Of a stretch of 49,856 nucleotides of DNA, positions 5,332 to 47,321 are shown in pieces. Numbering within the stretch: position 1 is the first letter of the stretch; each line of letters begins with the position of its first letter. Position numbers and translations under genes: made by a program. Below the pieces are notes generated by a model. The model searched no databases, was not told the origin of the DNA, and saw only the letters and a program-made list of their open reading frames with translations. The stretch is from a virus (lineage: Duplodnaviria; Heunggongvirae; Uroviricota; Caudoviricetes). The stretch lies in the IMG/VR virus record IMGVR_UViG_3300029003_000089. The stretch is one strand, 5' to 3'.

Positions 5332-5772
5332 ATGAAACACGGTTATTACGAAGCTCCAAACCTAACTGAAAAGCTTGAACAAGCGGCAAGATCATCATCT
5401 TTGCATACTGCAGCATTTTCTCAATCAGCTGGTATGTCTGGCGGTAATGTACCTATGCTACAATCAAGTGGTAGCGGTGGCTCTGGGAGTAATAATGTGC
5501 TTGAATCGAAAGTTGCAAAGCTTGAGTCTGATGTGTCCTATATCCGACGTGACGTTGATGAGCTTAAGACAGATGTCAAATCTATCGACAGAAACATGAT
5601 CGCTGTTCTGGAGCGACTCGATTCAATAAAAGATTCACTAGCCAAAAAACCCTCCATCGATGCTGTCGATAGAAAGGTTTCAGACGCAAAGCTTGCGGTA
5701 TTGCTTGGTGTTCCAGCAATCATCGCTGCAGGAACAGGTCTTTATAAGCTATCAATGTACTTTTTTCTTTAG
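5332..5772 (+). CDS. Hypothetical coiled-coil protein with C-terminal transmembrane anchor (XhlA-like architecture)
   Basis: 146 aa; Gly/Ser-rich linker, heptad-like segment LESKVAKLESDVSYIRRDVDELKTDVKSIDRNMIAVLERLDSIKDSL, C-terminal hydrophobic LAVLLGVPAIIAAGTGLYKL; 9 bp after previous ORF. Confidence 0.5.
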   Translation: MKHGYYEAPNLTEKLEQAARSSSLHTAAFSQSAGMSGGNVPMLQSSGSGGSGSNNVLESKVAKLESDVSYIRRDVDELKTDVKSIDRNMIAVLERLDSIKDSLAKKPSIDAVDRKVSDAKLAVLLGVPAIIAAGTGLYKLSMYFFL

Positions 5773-5848
5773 TGCTTAAGAAACTGCTCGCCACCTTGCA
5801 TTACGCAAAGCGATTTTTCATTCCCTATTACCCTTTCTTATCCATCTA

Positions 5849-5878
5849 AACCCGGCCCCAGTGCCGGGTTTTCTTTTG
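5849..5878 (+). terminator. Rho-independent terminator after cI-downstream cassette
   Basis: aacccggc cccagt gccgggtt followed by ttcttttg. Confidence 0.65.
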
Positions 5879-6004
5879 CCTTCCCCTCATCACACAAACC
5901 GTTCAAAAAACCACCACGACCTCGCTTCAGTTATCGCTATGCGATGCAAGTCACAAAATTAATTCTTTTTGCTATCAAACATTTAATATCAAAACACATT
6001 TAAT

Positions 6005-6046
6005 AATAGCAATAAGTATTGATATCACCAATAGCAATGGCTATCA
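6005..6046. promoter_or_regulatory. oL-like operator pair of prophage A
   Basis: aatagcaataagtattga and aatagcaatggctatca share the AATAGCAAT..TATCA motif with the cro/cI intergenic region. Confidence 0.5.
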
Positions 6047-6143
6047 TCACCATGTCGCAACAACACAACGATACGGCAACCACCTGATTCACCGTTGCGA
6101 TGACCGCTTAGATCCGCAGCTTGATTTCAGCAGGCTTCGGGGA

Positions 6144-6530
6144 GTGCGAGGGGTGAAACGGACGCGTGAACGTCGGTGTGACCAGCTGAAATCAACTCAA
6201 CACTTCATACCTCAGTCGCTTCAACGAGGCGGCTTAGTTATGACAACCGGCGGCCATCCACCGCCTGAATGCGCGCAGAAGTCTCTATATGTTCAGCAGC
6301 CCAGCTTACGGGCAGGAGTTTTTATGGTTCATCAACATTACGGAACGCAGACCGTTAATCGCGGTGCGGTCATGCCAGGAATGCTGGTCAAACACAAAGA
6401 TGGTACCTGGACTGCATCAGCTAATTTACGCGGACGGCTTTATCTGCATCGCGGCATCGAGCGCACTTATACCCGTGATTTGCTCGTGGAAGTTTTTCTC
6501 GACGGACGCGGCAACGGCCTGAATCACTAA
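6144..6530 (+). CDS. Hypothetical early-left-operon protein (kil/cIII position), GTG start
   Basis: 128 aa ORF between oL-like sites and gam; Arg-rich N-terminus (VKRTRERR); no confident homology. Confidence 0.3.
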
Positions 6531-10013: not shown

Positions 10014-10250
10014 ATGTCTCGACTAATCACTTTACAGGACTGGGCTAAAGAAGAATTTGGGGACTTAGCACCAAGTGAGCGAGTTCTGAAAAAATACGCG
10101 CAAGGGAAAATGATGGCCCCACCCGCTATAAAAGTTGGTCGCTACTGGATGATTGACCGAAATTCCCGTTTTGTAGGAACGCTTGCAGAACCGCAACTCC
10201 CAATAAACGCAAACCCAAAACTCCAAAGGATAATCGCTGATGGCTGCTAG
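10014..10250 (+). CDS. xis: Excisionase (Xis-like)
   Basis: 78 aa; TLQDWAKE...RVLKKYA...PPAIKVGRYW resembles lambda Xis; overlaps int start; SD aggagg upstream. Confidence 0.6.
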   Translation: MSRLITLQDWAKEEFGDLAPSERVLKKYAQGKMMAPPAIKVGRYWMIDRNSRFVGTLAEPQLPINANPKLQRIIADGC

Positions 10251-37899: not shown

Positions 37900-38895
37900 T
37901 CAGGCCAGCACACCAATTGCCAGCGCACGATCGATAAAACGAAATATCAGCTCCAGCTGGGAGCCATACATCTCTTCAAAGGCCACGGTATCCGCATGCA
38001 GCTCGTCGTGATGCTTTCTGCACAAAGGCAACACAAAGAGGTCATGCGCTTTTGTCCCCATTCCACCCTGACCATGGCCTATCAGGTGGTGGGGATCATC
38101 AGCGGGCTTTCCACAACATGCACACGGCTGTGTCTTAACCCAGCGCGTGTACTTTTCATTAACCCAGCGGCGACGTTTTGGGCGTAACATAAAAGACTCC
38201 GGTGACTCCGGATCCACTTTCAGCGCCAGCACCTTTTTCGCCTTATCTTGGATGATGCTGGTGGCAGGAACCGAAGGCACAAGGTCACTTTCCCGGGTGA
38301 CAGACGGCACAACAGGCTTCGGTAATCTCAGTGCCTTACGGGCTGCACTTTCCGGTAAGGCATCCGCCAGGTCATTACGAATCAGCCACCAGCACAGTTC
38401 CGGCATTGTCACAACGTGACTATCATCAAAACCGAGATCCCGACGCACGACAGACAACACCCAGCGGGCACAGTTATCCGTTGCCATTGATTCCAGCCGT
38501 TCCGTGAACTGGTCACGCAGCTGGTTATCGCAGTGCCAGCACAGACGAATTGCTCCCGGAGCGTGCCGCATTGTGGTCATGTTCTCGCTGTGCCAGTCGG
38601 AATGAGGCCACTGACAGCCCTTTTCACGAAGTAACCAGCTTTCAAGACATTCCACGCCACCAGCACGACGGATCACTGCCTCATTGCGGAACACGGCCCG
38701 AACGGCAGGATCATCCGCCAGCGGTTGTGATGCCGCCGGAACGGCACCACTGGCGAAAGATGAATAACGTTCCGGCTCAGGCTCCAGCAGGACACGCCCC
38801 TGCATAAACAGGGGCATCAGCTCTGAACCTGGCCTGAACAATACGATCCCCATACGCGGGGCAATTTCAGGGGTCAGTAGTGCTCTCACGGTCAC
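37900..38895 (-). CDS. DUF968-like protein (YdfU-like), Cys/His-rich C-terminus
   Basis: 331 aa; C-terminal CACCGKPADDPHHL...H..C.KHH motif; position upstream of Q. Confidence 0.55.
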   Translation of the reverse strand: MTVRALLTPEIAPRMGIVLFRPGSELMPLFMQGRVLLEPEPERYSSFASGAVPAASQPLADDPAVRAVFRNEAVIRRAGGVECLESWLLREKGCQWPHSDWHSENMTTMRHAPGAIRLCWHCDNQLRDQFTERLESMATDNCARWVLSVVRRDLGFDDSHVVTMPELCWWLIRNDLADALPESAARKALRLPKPVVPSVTRESDLVPSVPATSIIQDKAKKVLALKVDPESPESFMLRPKRRRWVNEKYTRWVKTQPCACCGKPADDPHHLIGHGQGGMGTKAHDLFVLPLCRKHHDELHADTVAFEEMYGSQLELIFRFIDRALAIGVLA

Positions 38896-38896
38896 C

Positions 38897-39706
38897 TCAA
38901 TGAACGGTATCGAGCAGCTTTAACAGCTCAGGGAATCGGGATTCGAAGAAATGCGGCTGCGTCTCGCGCGGATTTGCAGGACTGGTGATGTTCTTGCCGA
39001 ACATGCAGCCTTTCGCCGTCAGCGACCAGAATTTTTTGATGTTGTTAATCGCGGTACGGCTGTATCGTTCGCGTTGTTCAACGATCCCCAGCTTCACCAT
39101 CTGGTGATATGCCTGATTAGCCGTCAGGCGGATACCATACTGCCTCAGCAGTGCACTCAGCGACAGCGTGGGGCGACTTGAGCCATCGTGTGCATCAGCA
39201 GGAGCATCAATGGCATAGCGCGGTGCCAGATTCGGTAAGCCAACAGCCTCCTGGAGTTTCTGACAGGCCCCAAGCACAGATGAGTTAGACAGGTTTAACT
39301 CCCGACGCATAAAGTCCAGCAGAATCACACCTGCCTGCATCTTGTCAGCAGCCTGCCCGGATAATTTTTCCGGTGCACTGACTACCATATCGAAAGTACG
39401 GATCACCTTCAGATGGAATGACGGACTGATCCACATTGCATAGGCATACACCAGTTCCTTGCAGACATAACTCCCCTGCTTAGGACCACCACGAACTGTA
39501 TTAACCGGACCGACACCCAAATTTTGGGTATCGGTCAATTCCTGAACAAGTTCAACAGTCTGTTGGCTGGAAAGAAACTTTCCCGGCTCCTTCGTTCTGG
39601 CATTTGCACCAGATGCTACTGCGGCACGATGCAGATCGTTCAGGCTGTAACGTCCATAAGCATCACGACGAACTTCAATACCATCAATGACCATCAGATT
39701 ATTCAT
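38897..39706 (-). CDS. KilA-N domain protein (antirepressor-like)
   Basis: 269 aa; N-terminal MVIDGIEVRRDAYGRYSLNDLHRAA...YAMWISPSFHLKVIRTF pattern typical of KilA-N. Confidence 0.55.
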   Translation of the reverse strand: MNNLMVIDGIEVRRDAYGRYSLNDLHRAAVASGANARTKEPGKFLSSQQTVELVQELTDTQNLGVGPVNTVRGGPKQGSYVCKELVYAYAMWISPSFHLKVIRTFDMVVSAPEKLSGQAADKMQAGVILLDFMRRELNLSNSSVLGACQKLQEAVGLPNLAPRYAIDAPADAHDGSSRPTLSLSALLRQYGIRLTANQAYHQMVKLGIVEQRERYSRTAINNIKKFWSLTAKGCMFGKNITSPANPRETQPHFFESRFPELLKLLDTVH

Positions 39707-39725: not shown

Positions 39726-40115
39726 TCAGGCGGCTGCACCCGCCGTTTTCTCGTACTTACTGATAGTGATCTCGACCTTCCCTTCCGGGATAACCGGTCC
39801 CCACTCCACCAGCATTCTTTTCACCTGGCTGTCGTCTTCCCACACACCTGCGTGGGTCAGGGCGTCAAACAGCGCCTTGTTATAGTTATCCAGATCGCGG
39901 ATCCTGTTATCCGGAGGAAACAACACGATCTCCACTGAAGCAGGTGCCGACGTTGGTTTCGGCAGACGACGTAACTGCTCAACTATTGCTGCGCACGCCG
40001 CGCTCTGGAATTTTCGCCCCGCCGCGCTTATCAGGCTCTTACCTGCAAACGCCCCTTTGTTAGGGTGTCGCCAGTAAGTGTTCACGCTGGGCGGGAAAGG
40101 CAGGATAAGCTTCAT
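39726..40115 (-). CDS. rusA: RusA-like Holliday junction resolvase
   Basis: 129 aa; LPFPPSVNTYWRH...DLDNYNKALFDALTHAGVWEDDSQV matches RusA family. Confidence 0.8.
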   Translation of the reverse strand: MKLILPFPPSVNTYWRHPNKGAFAGKSLISAAGRKFQSAACAAIVEQLRRLPKPTSAPASVEIVLFPPDNRIRDLDNYNKALFDALTHAGVWEDDSQVKRMLVEWGPVIPEGKVEITISKYEKTAGAAA

Positions 40116-40438
40116 ACTTTCAGGCCCCTCTCATGTAACCAGTGAGTTGCACGCAGCCTGGCGTTTTCCTCACCGGCAAGCAGTGCGCGGATAATCCCGG
40201 CTGCCTCGCTGTCGTCGTCCTTCACTGTGGTATGAAGCGTGATACCCCGGGCCACGCCACGCTTTATCGTGATGACGCCTTTTTTCTCCAGTGAGCGAAG
40301 ATGCTCCACCGCTGCATTCACCGAACGGTATCCCAGCATGGCTGCCACCTCCTGATTGGTTGGCGGGAAACCACGTTCTTTCTGATAAGAAATCAGCATA
40401 TCCAGCACCTGCTGCTGGCATTGAGTTAACGTCGTCAT
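40112..40438 (-). CDS. LexA N-terminal DNA-binding-domain homolog lacking the peptidase domain
   Basis: LTQCQQQVLDMLISYQKERGFPPTNQEVAAMLGYRSVNAAVEHLRSLEKKGVITIKRGVARGITL parallels LexA residues 1-70; no S24 domain; probable start MTTLTQ. Confidence 0.65.
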   Translation of the reverse strand: MTTLTQCQQQVLDMLISYQKERGFPPTNQEVAAMLGYRSVNAAVEHLRSLEKKGVITIKRGVARGITLHTTVKDDDSEAAGIIRALLAGEENARLRATHWLHERGLKV

Positions 40439-40926
40439 TAACCCCCCACGTAATTCCCTGACAGATACCACTCATCACCCGATACAGCGCGCTTGCTGCT
40501 TTTCCGTAAACACTGCTCACGACGCGCCAGAAAATTGTTTCGTTCTGGCTGGGAGTGGCTTTCACGGAATGCCGCCATCCACACCGTTGCAGCACGACGG
40601 TATAAGCCCCTGGACTCTAGTTCTTCAGCCTGGCGGGTCAGGCACAAAATCACACGGGGATCGTTAGTGCCGACATAGAAATTGCGCACAGGTCTGGTTT
40701 CACGAACTGGTTGTGGTTCCGGCTCCTGTGCTCTCTCAGTCAGGCGCGGGAAATGTCTGCGTGTATCCCCTTCACAACGGTGAGCCACACGCCCACTCTG
40801 ACGTAACTTGCTTGCTGACTGCAGAACGCGCTGCCGTGAGTAACCAGCAAAAGCATCCGCAATGTCTCCGGAAGTACACCCCGGATGGGCTTCAATGAAT
40901 TTCTGAACTTCATTCAAAAGACTCAT
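40438..40926 (-). CDS. Hypothetical regulator with PerC-like C-terminal region
   Basis: 162 aa; AEELESRGLYRRAATVWMAAF...RREQCLRK resembles PerC family. Confidence 0.4.
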   Translation of the reverse strand: MSLLNEVQKFIEAHPGCTSGDIADAFAGYSRQRVLQSASKLRQSGRVAHRCEGDTRRHFPRLTERAQEPEPQPVRETRPVRNFYVGTNDPRVILCLTRQAEELESRGLYRRAATVWMAAFRESHSQPERNNFLARREQCLRKSSKRAVSGDEWYLSGNYVGG

Positions 40927-40928
40927 GA

Positions 40929-41747
40929 TTACCCCCTGAATCCTGCCGGGATCTGGCTGTAGTCCACGTTGTCGTAACTGGCTTTGAAGTACGGGTCCTC
41001 GCGTCTGGCTGCAGATACCGCAGGAACTTCCCAGGATTCTTCGAAATGACGATCCAGACCAAAGAACGTGACAGCCTGTTTCACAAATTGTGTGCCGCTG
41101 TTACCCATCGCAGATACCCAGCCCGCGTAGCGTTTCACACCTTCCAGCATGGTTTCGGGTTTTACCCCCTCATTCAAACGGGCTTTCCAGGCTTTGAAGG
41201 CTGCAGATTTTGAATTGCCACCAGCACGTTTGGGGTATGCCAGCCATGCCTGCTCAAACTCCGGAGAGTATTCCGGTCGGTTTGAACGAACTCGCACAGA
41301 CTCATCAGCAGATGCACCAACAGCTATTGGTTCATTGACTGGTTCTTTGACTGGTTCAAAAGAGTGACTGGTTCTGGGTGAATCCCCTGCACCACCCCCT
41401 GGTGCAACTCCTGCACTACCTGGTGAATTTGCTGCACCAGATAGTGAATTATTTGCACTACCCCCTAGTGAATCTCCTGCACCATCAAGATGAAGGAGAT
41501 AGATATTACTTGAGTTACCTTTTTCACCTTTCCGGGTGACTTTTTTTACCAGCCCGGAATCACAAAGGGCCGCAATATGATTCATCACAGAACGTTTGCT
41601 AATCTCGCACTGGTCAGCAATATGCTGGTAGCTGGGCCAGCACTCACCCTGATCGCTGGCATTATCAGCCAGCTTGATCAGAACCAGTTTTCGCAATGGA
41701 TTACCCACTCGAATTTTCATCGCTTTAACCATCAGCTCCATACTCAT
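40929..41747 (-). CDS. Replication initiator / replisome organiser with N-terminal winged HTH
   Basis: 272 aa; N-terminal HTH; internal DNA repeats (iterons) encoding a low-complexity Gly/Ser/Ala linker. Confidence 0.6.
   Translation of the reverse strand: MSMELMVKAMKIRVGNPLRKLVLIKLADNASDQGECWPSYQHIADQCEISKRSVMNHIAALCDSGLVKKVTRKGEKGNSSNIYLLHLDGAGDSLGGSANNSLSGAANSPGSAGVAPGGGAGDSPRTSHSFEPVKEPVNEPIAVGASADESVRVRSNRPEYSPEFEQAWLAYPKRAGGNSKSAAFKAWKARLNEGVKPETMLEGVKRYAGWVSAMGNSGTQFVKQAVTFFGLDRHFEESWEVPAVSAARREDPYFKASYDNVDYSQIPAGFRG
41335..41486. repeat. Origin-like iteron cluster inside replication initiator gene
   Basis: Three TGACTGGTTC repeats (41336-41374) then five ~21-bp GTGAAT(N3-4)CTGCAC-type repeats (41378-41486). 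Confidence 0.65.
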
Positions 41748-41968
41748 GCTGCACCTCCGAGATGCTTCATGTTTTTTCCGGAGCGAAAGGCTATAAGCGG
41801 CATACTGACGCGGTAACTACGGCCCAGCGGTTCACAAATCACCTTCTGACATTCACGGTCAACCAAGCTAACACGTAGAACATGCCCTGCAGGTGTGGTG
41901 TACCACTGACCCGGACGAGGACAACGGAAAGTCTGATTGGTAAACCGTTTGAAAATATTCCGGATCAT
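41744..41968 (-). CDS. Hypothetical small protein
   Basis: 74 aa ORF overlapping neighbours by 4 bp on both sides. Confidence 0.4.
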   Translation of the reverse strand: MIRNIFKRFTNQTFRCPRPGQWYTTPAGHVLRVSLVDRECQKVICEPLGRSYRVSMPLIAFRSGKNMKHLGGAA

Positions 41969-43113
41969 TTGCGCCCCCTTACCTCTGAAGGGTTCAGCGA
42001 CAAATTTATGAGGCAGGCCAGTGCCGAAGCATCATTAATATAGTCATACAAGCTAACAGCCAGCGGAGATTCGGCTTTTGCCAACATAGGATAAAGCTGC
42101 TGCAGCCAGACCTGATGAATTGATGAAATGTAGGAATAGAGAACGCTGGCGTTATGTGCAACGTCGCTCAGTACAGAGGGATTTGAAAGCTGTTTCTCCA
42201 TCTGGTTAAAGGCATTGATGTATGCCTCTTTGAACTGGGCAGCACGTTTACCCGTGAAACCCATAGCAAGAAACGCAAAGCCGTCGCGGGTTATTTGATA
42301 GCAAGGTAGTTTGCGGCCTGTGCAATCGGTGTAATCACTCACCGAAAAATTGCGGGAAGTGAATGATGCAGAGCATTCAAGCGTGCGGATCTTTTTCAGT
42401 ACATCGTCATGACGTTTGGAGAAGAAGTTGGCAACAGCCAGGGATGAAGTAACAGCCTGACCATCAACGATGGCAATTTCAGGTTGAGTGAGGGTTGGGA
42501 TCGTAGCCATGATGGCAGCCTCCGATAACAGTGAATTACCTTCACCACCGGAAACGCCAATTTCGCTGGTGGTGAACTGAACGGGGTTGGCGTAACCGGC
42601 GTTATCGGAAACCGGCGCACCTTTCGGTGCCCCCGTCCAGCCCACCATAATTTGGGTGTGCACAGACGCAGACGATAAAAAAGACGCTGGCGCGTCATAT
42701 ATCGCCGATAACATTTCCAGGACGCCAATCCCGGCACCCGCTTTATAAGGTGCCTGAACAGTGTAACGTCCCGGAATGGCAGAATCAATGTGCTGGTGGT
42801 CCTTCACACTCAACAAAATCACGCCTGAATTTCCACAAAGGACTAAAGCACTCATGCGGGTAGTCTTTGCGAAGATAGATAACGCGCTGTGTTTCTGGCT
42901 CCCAACGAATAACATGGACATAAAGCCCTCTTCCGTCACGAAACCAGCGGTTAAGTTCCTGCACAACTCGCCCCCCACAGTCAGGTAAAGTTCTCTGTGG
43001 TTACTTACAGACAGGTGATTTGGTAATCTGCATTCATGCCGTAACAACAGGTGTTCAGCGACACTGACCACCAGCTGTTGCGACAAACGGTTATTTGCCG
43101 TTAAACTGTTCAT
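41965..43113 (-). CDS. Rha-family phage regulatory protein with ~200-aa N-terminal extension of unknown function
   Basis: Rha-like block (AVANFFSKRHDDVLKKIRTL...YQITRDGFAFLAMGFTGKRAAQFKEAYINAF) at residues ~215-300; ATGA overlap with upstream gene at 43110-43113; alternative internal start at 42510 with GGAGG. Confidence 0.5.
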   Translation of the reverse strand: MNSLTANNRLSQQLVVSVAEHLLLRHECRLPNHLSVSNHRELYLTVGGELCRNLTAGFVTEEGFMSMLFVGSQKHSALSIFAKTTRMSALVLCGNSGVILLSVKDHQHIDSAIPGRYTVQAPYKAGAGIGVLEMLSAIYDAPASFLSSASVHTQIMVGWTGAPKGAPVSDNAGYANPVQFTTSEIGVSGGEGNSLLSEAAIMATIPTLTQPEIAIVDGQAVTSSLAVANFFSKRHDDVLKKIRTLECSASFTSRNFSVSDYTDCTGRKLPCYQITRDGFAFLAMGFTGKRAAQFKEAYINAFNQMEKQLSNPSVLSDVAHNASVLYSYISSIHQVWLQQLYPMLAKAESPLAVSLYDYINDASALACLINLSLNPSEVRGRK

Positions 43114-43661
43114 GCGTTAGTTTCTCCACAGACACAAAACGCCACGACGCCCGGAGCTGCACACTCGCGGGCGTCACTCTTTTCTGGAACGCAGAAAATT
43201 TTGTAGACCAGTGCCGCATGCTCCTGGAGCTTCGAAATCGACAGATACAACTCATCATTAATTGCTGTTTGTTCGTGTGGCTCCACTACCCCATCTTCGA
43301 TTGCCGAACGAATCTGCTTTGAGTAACTCCCGATCTGTTCAATGACTTCCAGCAGGCGTTGGTTGATATCAGCGTTCTCTACCTCCTCAATTTCAGGAAG
43401 TGATACAAACACCCCACCAGCAGACTGTGCGACAGCATCCGCAATGTAGTGAGTGCCAGCCGCGCGCTGTAAAATCATTGCCCATCCCAGCGGGAAAATC
43501 TGATCGCCATCTGCACGAAGGCGGTTGAATAAAGCGTTCTCTGTTACATCCAGCCAGTCAGCAGCTTCAGCGTAACCACCTGGCAATGCCGCGATAGTTT
43601 TTCTGACAGCTTTCACGTACCAGTCAGGTTGTTTTTCCACTTTCCAGTGATGCTTACCCAC
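43110..43661 (-). CDS. Hypothetical early regulatory protein (cII position)
   Basis: 183 aa; directly downstream of cro-like gene with overlapping start/stop. Confidence 0.4.
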   Translation of the reverse strand: MGKHHWKVEKQPDWYVKAVRKTIAALPGGYAEAADWLDVTENALFNRLRADGDQIFPLGWAMILQRAAGTHYIADAVAQSAGGVFVSLPEIEEVENADINQRLLEVIEQIGSYSKQIRSAIEDGVVEPHEQTAINDELYLSISKLQEHAALVYKIFCVPEKSDARECAAPGVVAFCVCGETNA

Positions 43662-43914
43662 GGCTTACCTCCTGTTCCTGTGGTTTAAACCCATTCTGGT
43701 TTTGGCTAGATTGAAAACGTGCCGGATAAAGAATCTGCATTTCGCTGATTTCACCCTTAAAAAAATTGGCTAGACGTTCTGCAAGATCGATAGATGGAAT
43801 TTGTTCCAGTCTTTCAATACGACTCAGCGTCGCTGGATTGACCTGAACGCCCGCAGCAACATGCTGCAAAGTAAATCCGTGCGCCTTACGCACATTTCGT
43901 AATGGTGATTGCAT
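43654..43914 (-). CDS. Cro-like XRE-family HTH regulator
   Basis: 86 aa; HTH GFTLQHVAAGVQVNPATLSRIER; divergent from repressor. Confidence 0.7.
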   Translation of the reverse strand: MQSPLRNVRKAHGFTLQHVAAGVQVNPATLSRIERLEQIPSIDLAERLANFFKGEISEMQILYPARFQSSQNQNGFKPQEQEVSRG

Positions 43915-44011: not shown

Positions 44012-44704
44012 ATGAACATAGGAAATCGAGTCAGACAACTTCGCCAGGCGAAGAACATGAAAATCGCCGATCTCGCTGAAGCAATAGGAGTGGATGCGGC
44101 GAATATCTCACGCCTGGAAACAGGTAAGCAGAAACAATTCACTGAACAAGCCCTGAGTAATATTGCCAGGAGCTTAGGTGTTGATATTGCTGATCTCTTT
44201 ACCTCAGACCTCAAAAGTAATACTGTATATAAAAACAGTATTAGTGAGGATGTTGCGCAGGTGAAGGATGTATTCCGTATTGAAATGCTGGATGTCAGTG
44301 CCAGTGCGGGAAATGGCCTTATCCAAGGCGGTGATGTCATTGATGTGATTCATGCCATTGAATACAGAACTGATAATGCTGTATCGATGTTTGGCGGACG
44401 GCCAGCCAATCACATTAAAGTTATCAACGTTCGTGGGGACAGTATGTGTCCAACCATTGAGCCAGGAGATCTCATCTTCGTTGATGTAAGTATCAATCAG
44501 TTTGATGGGGATGGTATCTATGTATTTGGTTTTGATGATAAAATTTATGTCAAACGACTGCAAATGATACCTGACAAACTACTGGTGATTTCTGATAACC
44601 AGATTTACCGTGAATGGGGAATTACCAGCGAAAATGAACACCGGTTTATGGTCTTTGGAAAGGTCTTAATCAGCCAGTCACAAACCCTTAAGCGACACAA
44701 TTAA
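44012..44704 (+). CDS. CI-like repressor, HTH plus S24 peptidase domain
   Basis: 230 aa; C-terminal domain closely parallels the prophage A repressor; N-terminal HTH differs (heteroimmune). Confidence 0.85.
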   Translation: MNIGNRVRQLRQAKNMKIADLAEAIGVDAANISRLETGKQKQFTEQALSNIARSLGVDIADLFTSDLKSNTVYKNSISEDVAQVKDVFRIEMLDVSASAGNGLIQGGDVIDVIHAIEYRTDNAVSMFGGRPANHIKVINVRGDSMCPTIEPGDLIFVDVSINQFDGDGIYVFGFDDKIYVKRLQMIPDKLLVISDNQIYREWGITSENEHRFMVFGKVLISQSQTLKRHN

Positions 44705-46787: not shown

Positions 46788-47321
46788 ATGTCATTTATTA
46801 AAACTTTTTCTGGGAAGCATTTTTATTATGAAAGGATAAATAAAGACGACATCGATATTAACGATATCGCGGTTTCCCTTTCAAATATCTGTCGCTTTGC
46901 CGGTCATCTTTCGCACTTCTACAGCGTCGCCCAACATGCGGTGCTTTGCAGCCAGCTGGTACCGCAGGAATTTGCTTTTGAAGCGTTAATGCATGATGCA
47001 ACAGAAGCGTATTGCCAGGACATCCCCGCACCACTGAAACGCCTTCTTCCTGACTATAAACGGATNNNNNNNNNNNNNNNNNNNNNNNNNNNNNNNNNNN
47101 NNNNNNNNNNNNNNNNNNNNNNNNNNNNNNNNNNNNNNNNNNNNNNNNNNNNNNNNNNNNNNNNNNNNNNNNNTCGGGCTTGATGATGGCTCTTTCTGGC
47201 CTGTACTGGAAGGTATCCCGGCAACAGAGATGTTCAACGTGATTCCACTGGCACCGGGCCATGCCTACGGGATGTTTATGGAACGTTTTAAAGAGCTGCA
47301 TAAGATGCATAAGCAATCCTA
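46788..47321 (+). CDS. YfdR-like HD-domain phosphohydrolase, interrupted by assembly gap
   Basis: N-terminal part MSFIKTF...CRFAGHLSHFYSVAQHAVL...MHDATEAY (HD-type motifs) before the N run; C-terminal part ...FNVIPLAPGHAYGMFMERFKELHKMHKQS-stop after it. Confidence 0.5.
47066..47173. other. Run of 108 N (assembly/scaffold gap)
   Basis: Literal n characters in sequence. Confidence 0.99.

Follow-up and report, generated by a model that had tools for sequence, protein, structure and literature searches.

The 49,856-nucleotide stretch of viral DNA analyzed here (the window; IMG/VR record IMGVR_UViG_3300029003_000089) is a lambdoid prophage, and a gene in the nin region of its early-right (cro-to-Q) operon, at 40112..40438 on the minus strand, encodes a homologue of LexA's DNA-binding domain that lacks the autocleavage domain. 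The reading that we favour for this LexA-like protein, although with somewhat less than even confidence, is that it may act as a RecA-insensitive regulator of the LexA type, which would bind SOS boxes non-cleavably; what DNA it targets, whether it forms oligomers, in which direction it regulates and how the phage would benefit are points that we infer. The protein itself is already annotated in databases (PHROG 362; "LexA family transcriptional regulator"), and phage-borne, peptidase-less LexA DNA-binding domains are a known kind.

The open reading frame (ORF) extends from an ATG at 40436-40438 to a TGA stop at 40112-40114 and specifies 108 amino acids (MTTLTQCQQQVLDMLISYQKERGFPPTNQEVAAMLGYRSVNAAVEHLRSLEKKGVITIKRGVARGITLHTTVKDDDSEAAGIIRALLAGEENARLRATHWLHERGLKV). 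An alternative, GTG-started reading of 119 amino acids appears in the mechanical ORF list; the homologues all begin at the ATG. The first-pass annotation had proposed, from the letters alone, that the first ~70 residues parallel the winged helix-turn-helix (HTH) domain of host LexA, and this proved correct. BLASTP aligned residues 1-68 with E. coli LexA without gaps, 34 of the 68 positions (50%) being identical (E=6e-21), the Pfam family PF01726 (LexA_DNA_bind) was matched over its entire model (positions 1-65 of 65; E=1.5e-18), and all significant matches among solved structures were to LexA, with 1lea at the top (E=2e-15). PHROG 362 was matched over the full length of the protein, including the C-terminal tail (residues 1-108; profile of 106 positions; E=7.6e-58). 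The relevant features of the gene are as follows.

40112..40438, minus strand: LexA-like gene (PF01726, PHROG 362 and the ratio of nonsynonymous to synonymous polymorphism, pN/pS)
40232..40438, minus strand: LexA-type winged HTH domain, residues 1-69 (identity with LexA, AlphaFold2 model, superposition on 3jso)
40322-40324, minus strand: codon of Ser39, which precedes the recognition helix (alignments)
40283..40321, minus strand: recognition helix VNAAVEHLRSLEK, residues 40-52 (alignments)
40130..40222, minus strand: two predicted tail helices, residues 73-103 (AlphaFold2 model; pattern conserved in the family)

Structure prediction, which the same annotation had put forward as a check, agrees with the homology. 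The AlphaFold2 model, built from 32 diverse family members (mean predicted local distance difference test score, pLDDT, 80.7; predicted template modelling score, pTM, 0.54), has helices at residues 6-22, 28-35 and 40-52 and strands at 56-58 and 66-68, i.e. the LexA topology of three helices and a two-stranded wing. Its first 68 residues superpose (Foldseek) on DNA-bound LexA (3jso) with a root-mean-square deviation of 1.0 Å. Past residue 69 neither Foldseek nor BLASTP gave a significant match to LexA. The tail is predicted to form two helices (residues 73-88 and 93-103; pLDDT about 85), and an Ala93/Ala97/Leu101 pattern within it is kept in alignments across the family. Residues 73-103 may constitute a dimerisation module; a hydrophobic-moment test for amphipathicity of the tail helices, taken as a sign of a dimer interface, was not significant. 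The top matches of the model in a viral structure library were further LexA DNA-binding domains that stand alone, and they came from very diverse phages, which indicates that proteins of this kind are generally common.

The second half of LexA is missing. Pfam detected no Peptidase_S24 domain (PF00717) in the 108-residue protein, the TIGR00498 equivalog profile for lexA scored 66.5 bits (below its cut-off of 110.95) and was aligned only over positions 1-91 of 203, and residues 70-108 gave no significant BLASTP alignment with LexA. The C-terminal S24 peptidase/dimerisation domain with its Ser-Lys dyad is thus lacking, as had been claimed for this product of ~108 residues. The accompanying claim, that no Ala-Gly cleavage site is present, was wrong to the letter and right in effect. 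Ala88-Gly89 does occur in the allele of the window, and HMMER, whose alignment with LexA reaches residue 90, pairs it with Ala84-Gly85 of LexA (segment IIRALLAGE versus LVGRVAAGE in LexA). However, the Gly is replaced by Asn in relatives from Citrobacter, the motif has disappeared in those from Cronobacter, Klebsiella and Enterobacter, and the segment is predicted to be a helix (pLDDT about 86) instead of a cleavage loop, which argues that Ala88-Gly89 is not a conserved cleavage site.

These data bear on the possibility that the protein acts on other proteins, either by poisoning LexA through heterodimers or, via a relic cleavage segment, as a decoy for RecA* or for the LexA active site. The HMMER pairing just described and the extension of the TIGR00498 match to position 91 are the points in its favour. 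Since LexA dimerises through its S24 domain (PMC8565304), which is missing here, and since the tail has no significant similarity to LexA, heterodimerisation with host LexA, as suggested in the first-pass annotation, is unlikely. A decoy is also unlikely, because the Ala-Gly motif is not conserved, and the relic cleavage site was rejected on this ground; moreover, selection is strongest on the DNA-binding domain and not on the Ala-Gly segment. We therefore regard action through protein-protein contacts as very improbable.

PMC13416735, citing Knegtel 1995, gives Ser39, Asn41, Ala42, Glu44 and Glu45 as the residues by which E. coli LexA contacts DNA; of these five, Ser39, Asn41, Ala42 and Glu45 are retained in the alignments, and position 44 is Val. 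The four retained residues are invariant among 71 E. coli-type alleles, and Arg64-Gly65-Ile66 of the wing does not vary in any family member. Wing contacts have been held responsible for the rigid spacer in LexA sites (PMC8565304), so the retained wing may be expected to impose a preference for N8 spacing even without LexA's C-terminal domain. The isolated N-terminal domain of LexA keeps some SOS-box binding and repression, and it is for this reason that the N-terminal fragment must be cleared by ClpXP (PMC10584840). Taken together, the retained contacts, the wing and this behaviour of the isolated domain make a LexA surrogate insensitive to RecA the simplest interpretation.

The gene is widespread. 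It was found in 2233 of 5426 complete E. coli genomes (41%), in up to four copies per genome, and with the exception of one record the E. coli copies share at least 90% nucleotide identity. About 50 phage records contain it, including SfV (orf42, "unknown"), SfII, SfIV, mEp460, 2H10, Ayreon, cdtI, 1720a-02, Stx2a_1447/WGPS2 and fifteen Stx2c phages. Full-length relatives with 39-63% identity reside in prophages of Citrobacter, Salmonella, Cronobacter, Klebsiella, Enterobacter, Raoultella, Atlantibacter and Hafnia; relatives overall align end to end at 39-95% identity. Members of PHROG 362 and of the NCBI group "LexA family transcriptional regulator" have about 105-135 residues and consist of PF01726 plus a helical tail, and all those found belong to temperate phages or prophages of Enterobacterales. 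The location within the nin region, with the replication genes on one side and RusA/DUF968/Q on the other, is common to SfV, 2H10, cdtI, Ayreon, SfII and Kati and is identical in prophages of Klebsiella, Cronobacter, Enterobacter, Salmonella and Raoultella. The gene occurs together with at least four unrelated cI immunity types and several replication modules. Our literature search found no functional study of the coliphage LexA-like protein; a pangenome of Shiga toxin (Stx) phages merely lists "pham 237, LexA family transcriptional regulator, pfam01726" in 15 phages (PMC8136144).

Across the 71 nucleotide alleles pN/pS was 0.18 for the gene as a whole; it reached 0.36 in the tail and only 0.042 in the DNA-binding domain, a sign of very strong purifying selection on the latter, which shows that the protein is functional and that the DNA-binding domain is its most constrained part. 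The idea of a decaying, functionless remnant of a captured lexA draws on the dispensability of the gene, which some otherwise near-identical prophages lack. This selection pattern effectively refutes it, and the ORF is, besides, intact, has kept its length across several genera and thousands of genomes, and is translationally coupled within an operon; we give a remnant almost no credence.

The organization of the operon, which had been described earlier as an early operon with the gene next to rusA, was confirmed and comprises the following elements.

44012..44704, plus strand: cI-type repressor gene, divergent
43654..43914, minus strand: cro-like gene
43110..43661, minus strand: ymfL-like gene
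41965..43113, minus strand: Rha-family gene
41744..41968, minus strand: small ORF
40929..41747, minus strand: replication initiator gene
40438..40926, minus strand: PerC-family activator homologue (yfdN-like), upstream partner of the LexA-like gene (PF06069, E=1e-9; PHROG 1324; RefSeq annotation of an identical locus)
40436..40440, minus strand: TAATG overlap of the PerC-family stop and the LexA-like start, with a GGGGGG Shine-Dalgarno-like run in front (sequence)
40112..40115, minus strand: ATGA overlap of the LexA-like stop and the rusA start, translational coupling (sequence)
39726..40115, minus strand: rusA (RusA Holliday-junction resolvase), downstream partner (PF05866, E=6e-15; PHROG 34)
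38897..39706, minus strand: KilA-N gene
37900..38895, minus strand: DUF968/HNH gene
downstream of DUF968, minus strand: Q-type antiterminator gene

From about 40,000 to 43,900, the minus strand contains no promoter-like site that scores at least 9/12; the region predicted as a "dam promoter" in the SfV record is conserved in the window, but weak. Because the start and stop codons overlap with those of the neighbours on both sides and no promoter-like site separates the cro region from the gene, the LexA-like gene is most simply viewed as a delayed-early gene of the rightward operon, which would be expressed during lytic development.

In most relatives (SfV, SfII, cdtI, mEp460, Kati) a dam-type methylase gene of ~650 bp lies between the PerC-like and LexA-like genes (position 5615-6268 in the SfV comparison). 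The window, 2H10 and Ayreon lack it, and the PerC gene directly adjoins the LexA-like gene (40436-40440 in the window). The PerC family includes activators of the LEE (locus of enterocyte effacement) virulence island in enteropathogenic and enterohaemorrhagic E. coli (EPEC/EHEC). The early operon of the window therefore delivers two small, translationally coupled regulators together, the PerC-family homologue and the LexA-like protein. In the leftward operon, a masked run of 108 N (47066-47173) breaks a yfdR-like 5'-deoxynucleotidase gene. Searches against libraries of defence systems gave no meaningful match.

The same neighbourhood could be taken to mean that the protein is no regulator of transcription but a DNA-binding accessory that targets or times the Dam methylase, RusA or the DUF968/HNH nuclease. 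It adjoins Dam, RusA and DUF968 in prophages of E. coli, Cronobacter, Salmonella, Enterobacter, Klebsiella and Raoultella, and its start and stop codons overlap with those of its neighbours. None of these neighbours is constant, however: Dam is missing in the window and RusA in the Klebsiella/Raoultella loci, the LexA-like gene is absent from 10 of 80 loci whose DUF968 is 99% identical, and PerC and RusA outlast its loss. The synteny, furthermore, is that of the generally mosaic nin region. An accessory role is in our opinion improbable.

We return to the RecA-insensitive LexA-type regulator and to how it might work. The protein may have originated from an enterobacterial-type LexA through loss of the S24 peptidase/dimerisation domain, in whose place it has a short tail of two helices. 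As the product of a delayed-early gene of the cro-to-Q operon, it would be made only after prophage induction or infection, and since the catalytic domain is missing, RecA* could not switch it off. Neher and co-workers are said to have found in 2003 that the ...VAA end of the cleaved LexA N-terminal fragment tags it for ClpXP; the LexA-like protein, unlike that fragment, ends in GLKV. Two copies could bind to operators of the LexA type (CTGT-N8-ACAG or something close to it), where contacts between the two wings would fix the spacing, as they do in LexA, and SOS-box promoters would then be repressed just when host LexA is destroyed. The promoters affected might be those of (i) host SOS genes, (ii) LexA-gated functions of co-resident prophages, and (iii) phage genes that carry a box, e.g. 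cI of the window. In its most far-reaching form, which we consider quite unlikely as a whole, this proposal would make the protein a RecA-proof surrogate of LexA, carried by prophages in ~40% of E. coli genomes (Shiga-toxin and serotype-converting Shigella phages among them), which after induction would re-silence the SOS regulon and LexA-gated rivals and, in phages like that of the window, also clamp the operator within their own cI gene, thereby blocking new repressor synthesis and committing the cell to lysis.

If SOS operators are indeed bound, induced prophages would actively shut down the very DNA-damage response of the host to which they owe their induction. Among these prophages are cdt phages, Stx2a and Stx2c converting phages and O-antigen-converting phages of Shigella, and toxin yield, mutagenesis, SOS responses induced by antibiotics and competition between co-resident prophages could all change. 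Should the protein recognize an operator of its own instead, it would be one more phage regulator, of modest interest.

In order to localize possible targets, we scanned the sequences with an SOS-box position weight matrix based on known operators, for which the expectation is about 0.025 hits above 20 bits per 46 kb. The window contains a single strong LexA operator:

44221..44240, no strand assigned: TACTGTATATAAAAACAGTA, sole strong LexA operator in the 49.9-kb window, inside the cI gene (26.8 bits; next best 14)

This near-consensus sequence, which we take to be identical to the E. coli umuDC operator, lies in the part of cI, the gene of a RecA-cleavable repressor, encoding the linker between the HTH and S24 domains (codons about 70-77), and no promoter-like site was found beside it. 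Its arms are intact in 80 of 80 IMG/VR copies of this cI allele and also in phage SfII, and a Tyr-to-Cys codon change is tolerated in its spacer. For the LexA-like protein it is no more than a candidate target in cis.

Other boxes were found in related phages. One of them, TACTGTAAAAATAAACAGTG, spans codons 3-9 of a DNA methyltransferase gene located between Q and the holin gene in SfV (orf48, 10171-10190) and in Stx2c, cdtI, Ayreon and mEp460-type phages (in the comparison sequences L005, L006 and L007 at 16751, 44083 and 41489, respectively), which suggests LexA control of this late-region methylase. The phages 2H10, cdtI and Stx2c, which carry the LexA-like gene, have dinI genes with tandem SOS boxes. 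In Klebsiella/Raoultella prophages a 28-bit box is followed by dinI, orf85, the LexA-like gene, orf67 and DUF968, and this box overlaps a TTGAAC-17-TACTGT promoter; in an Enterobacter prophage a box of 20.9 bits lies about 150 bp upstream of the unit that holds the LexA-like gene (boxes of the Klebsiella, Raoultella and Enterobacter sequences: L010-L012, 9385-9404; L017, 6386-6405; L015, 6560-6579). In prophages of these three genera the LexA-like gene is probably SOS-inducible, and this setting in distant relatives is a point in favour of the SOS-box-binding regulator. Four IMG/VR prophages (L029, L075, L077 and L080; 9067-9086) contain a 21-bit box, TACTGTATTTATGAACAGTG, about 440 bp downstream of the LexA-like gene, within a variant rusA/KilA-N segment.

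In the collection of annotated phages, all 13 records with the box-bearing cI allele of the window and all 27 with the box-bearing late methylase also have the LexA-like gene. Two controlled IMG/VR samples, consisting of 80 loci picked by the neighbouring DUF968 gene and 57 loci picked by the cI allele, showed that this pairing reflects physical linkage and not partnership, and the idea that gene and box are paired as regulator and cis target was rejected.

Several observations weigh against an SOS-box-binding regulator, the first of which come from the same samples. A box was present within 10 kb in 41 of the 70 DUF968-picked loci with the gene and in 3 of the 10 without it, and among the loci picked by the cI allele 50 of 57 had the gene and 7 lacked it, some of the latter by clean loss between retained PerC and RusA genes. 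Phage Kati and prophages of Cronobacter and Salmonella have the gene and no strong box. SOS boxes in cis are, then, neither necessary for the LexA-like gene nor specifically tied to it. The recognition helix points in the same direction: only two of the sampled full-length LexA-like sequences lack Glu44, and no member of the phage family has it, position 44 there being Val, Ala, Phe, Leu, Thr or Asn, and helix positions 43-46 vary among the relatives from E. coli, Cronobacter, Klebsiella and Atlantibacter, hosts that share one SOS box. To judge from the alignments, this genus-specific variation is a pattern that fits diverging, phage-specific operators. Dimerisation of the modelled tail is a conjecture, given the outcome of the hydrophobic-moment test and a pTM of only 0.54. 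In addition, 1720a-02, the one studied phage with the LexA-like gene, which also carries the cI allele of the window, suppresses a co-resident prophage, and Cro alone is sufficient for this effect (bioRxiv 10.1101/2025.01.01.630987); a role of the LexA-like gene in the inhibition exerted by this "bully phage" was rejected for that reason. Finally, the only characterised analogue, gp6 of the Bacillus tectivirus GIL01/Bam35, is an activator of transcription and differs from LexA in its specificity (Fornelos et al. 2018, PMC6182141).

The alternative to which most of these points lead is that of a transcription factor particular to the phage; its LexA-derived domain would have come by drift to recognize another operator, where it would be a repressor or a gp6-like activator, with no direct action on the SOS regulon. 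We consider this rather doubtful taken by itself, and nearly as likely as SOS-box binding. The family-wide loss of Glu44, the genus-specific changes at helix positions 43-46 and the frequency of stand-alone LexA DNA-binding domains in very diverse viruses speak for it, as does the precedent of gp6, which binds GaCACAnnTGTGaC instead of the Bacillus LexA box and activates a late promoter (PMC6182141). On the other hand, the E. coli subfamily retains four of the five LexA contacts named above, and the window and six related phages yielded no recurrent alternative palindrome: a search of these sequences for ACTGT/ACAGT inverted repeats with spacings of 0-30 and for CTNT-N6-10-ANAG returned only canonical N8 boxes or coincidences within coding sequences, and the Q/late-promoter region had no candidate palindrome nearby. 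It is also difficult to see where a conserved operator of the phage would lie, because the immunity, replication, Q and late modules combined with the gene are many and different and the block to which it belongs leaves no space between genes. The many immunity and replication combinations, together with an overlapping gene block that leaves no room for an operator, make a target in trans, in the host regulon or in other elements, seem likelier than an operator private to the phage.

Among known systems, the N-terminal domain of LexA itself, also as the post-cleavage fragment LexA(1-84), shares with the LexA-like protein the winged-helix fold (1.0 Å), 50% identity, most of the DNA contacts and the wing. 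The differences are that the phage protein lacks the S24 domain and a conserved Ala-Gly, has Val in place of Glu44, possesses a 40-residue two-helix tail of its own and fails the TIGR00498 cut-off, and that its gene belongs to a phage early operon, whereas LexA is chromosomal and autoregulated.

LexA(Ind-) mutants of the lexA3 type are non-cleavable full-length dimers with wild-type specificity and affinity. Their RecA*-proof binding of the LexA type is the state that the LexA-like protein would imitate if it bound SOS boxes. The prophage-encoded DinI homologues and gp7 of GIL01 are comparable in that they too are small proteins of prophages and dampen or alter the SOS response, but they are unrelated in sequence and their targets are RecA* or the LexA protein and not DNA.

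The GIL01/Bam35 protein gp6 offers the nearest parallel in design, being phage-encoded, essentially a LexA DNA-binding domain alone, and a product of the early operon; its phage is temperate and has a biology linked to the SOS response. It differs in having 66 residues and no tail and in resembling the LexA of Bacillus. Homology between the two phage proteins was rejected, as BLASTP produced no alignment at E<=100. In a manual alignment, Lys38 of gp6, which is functionally required, occupies the position of LexA Asn41, which is Asn in the LexA-like protein. Lambdoid late expression depends on Q, and for this reason a role equivalent to that of gp6 at a late promoter is not expected. As far as their sequences tell, gp6 and the LexA-like protein are independent truncations of different LexA lineages.

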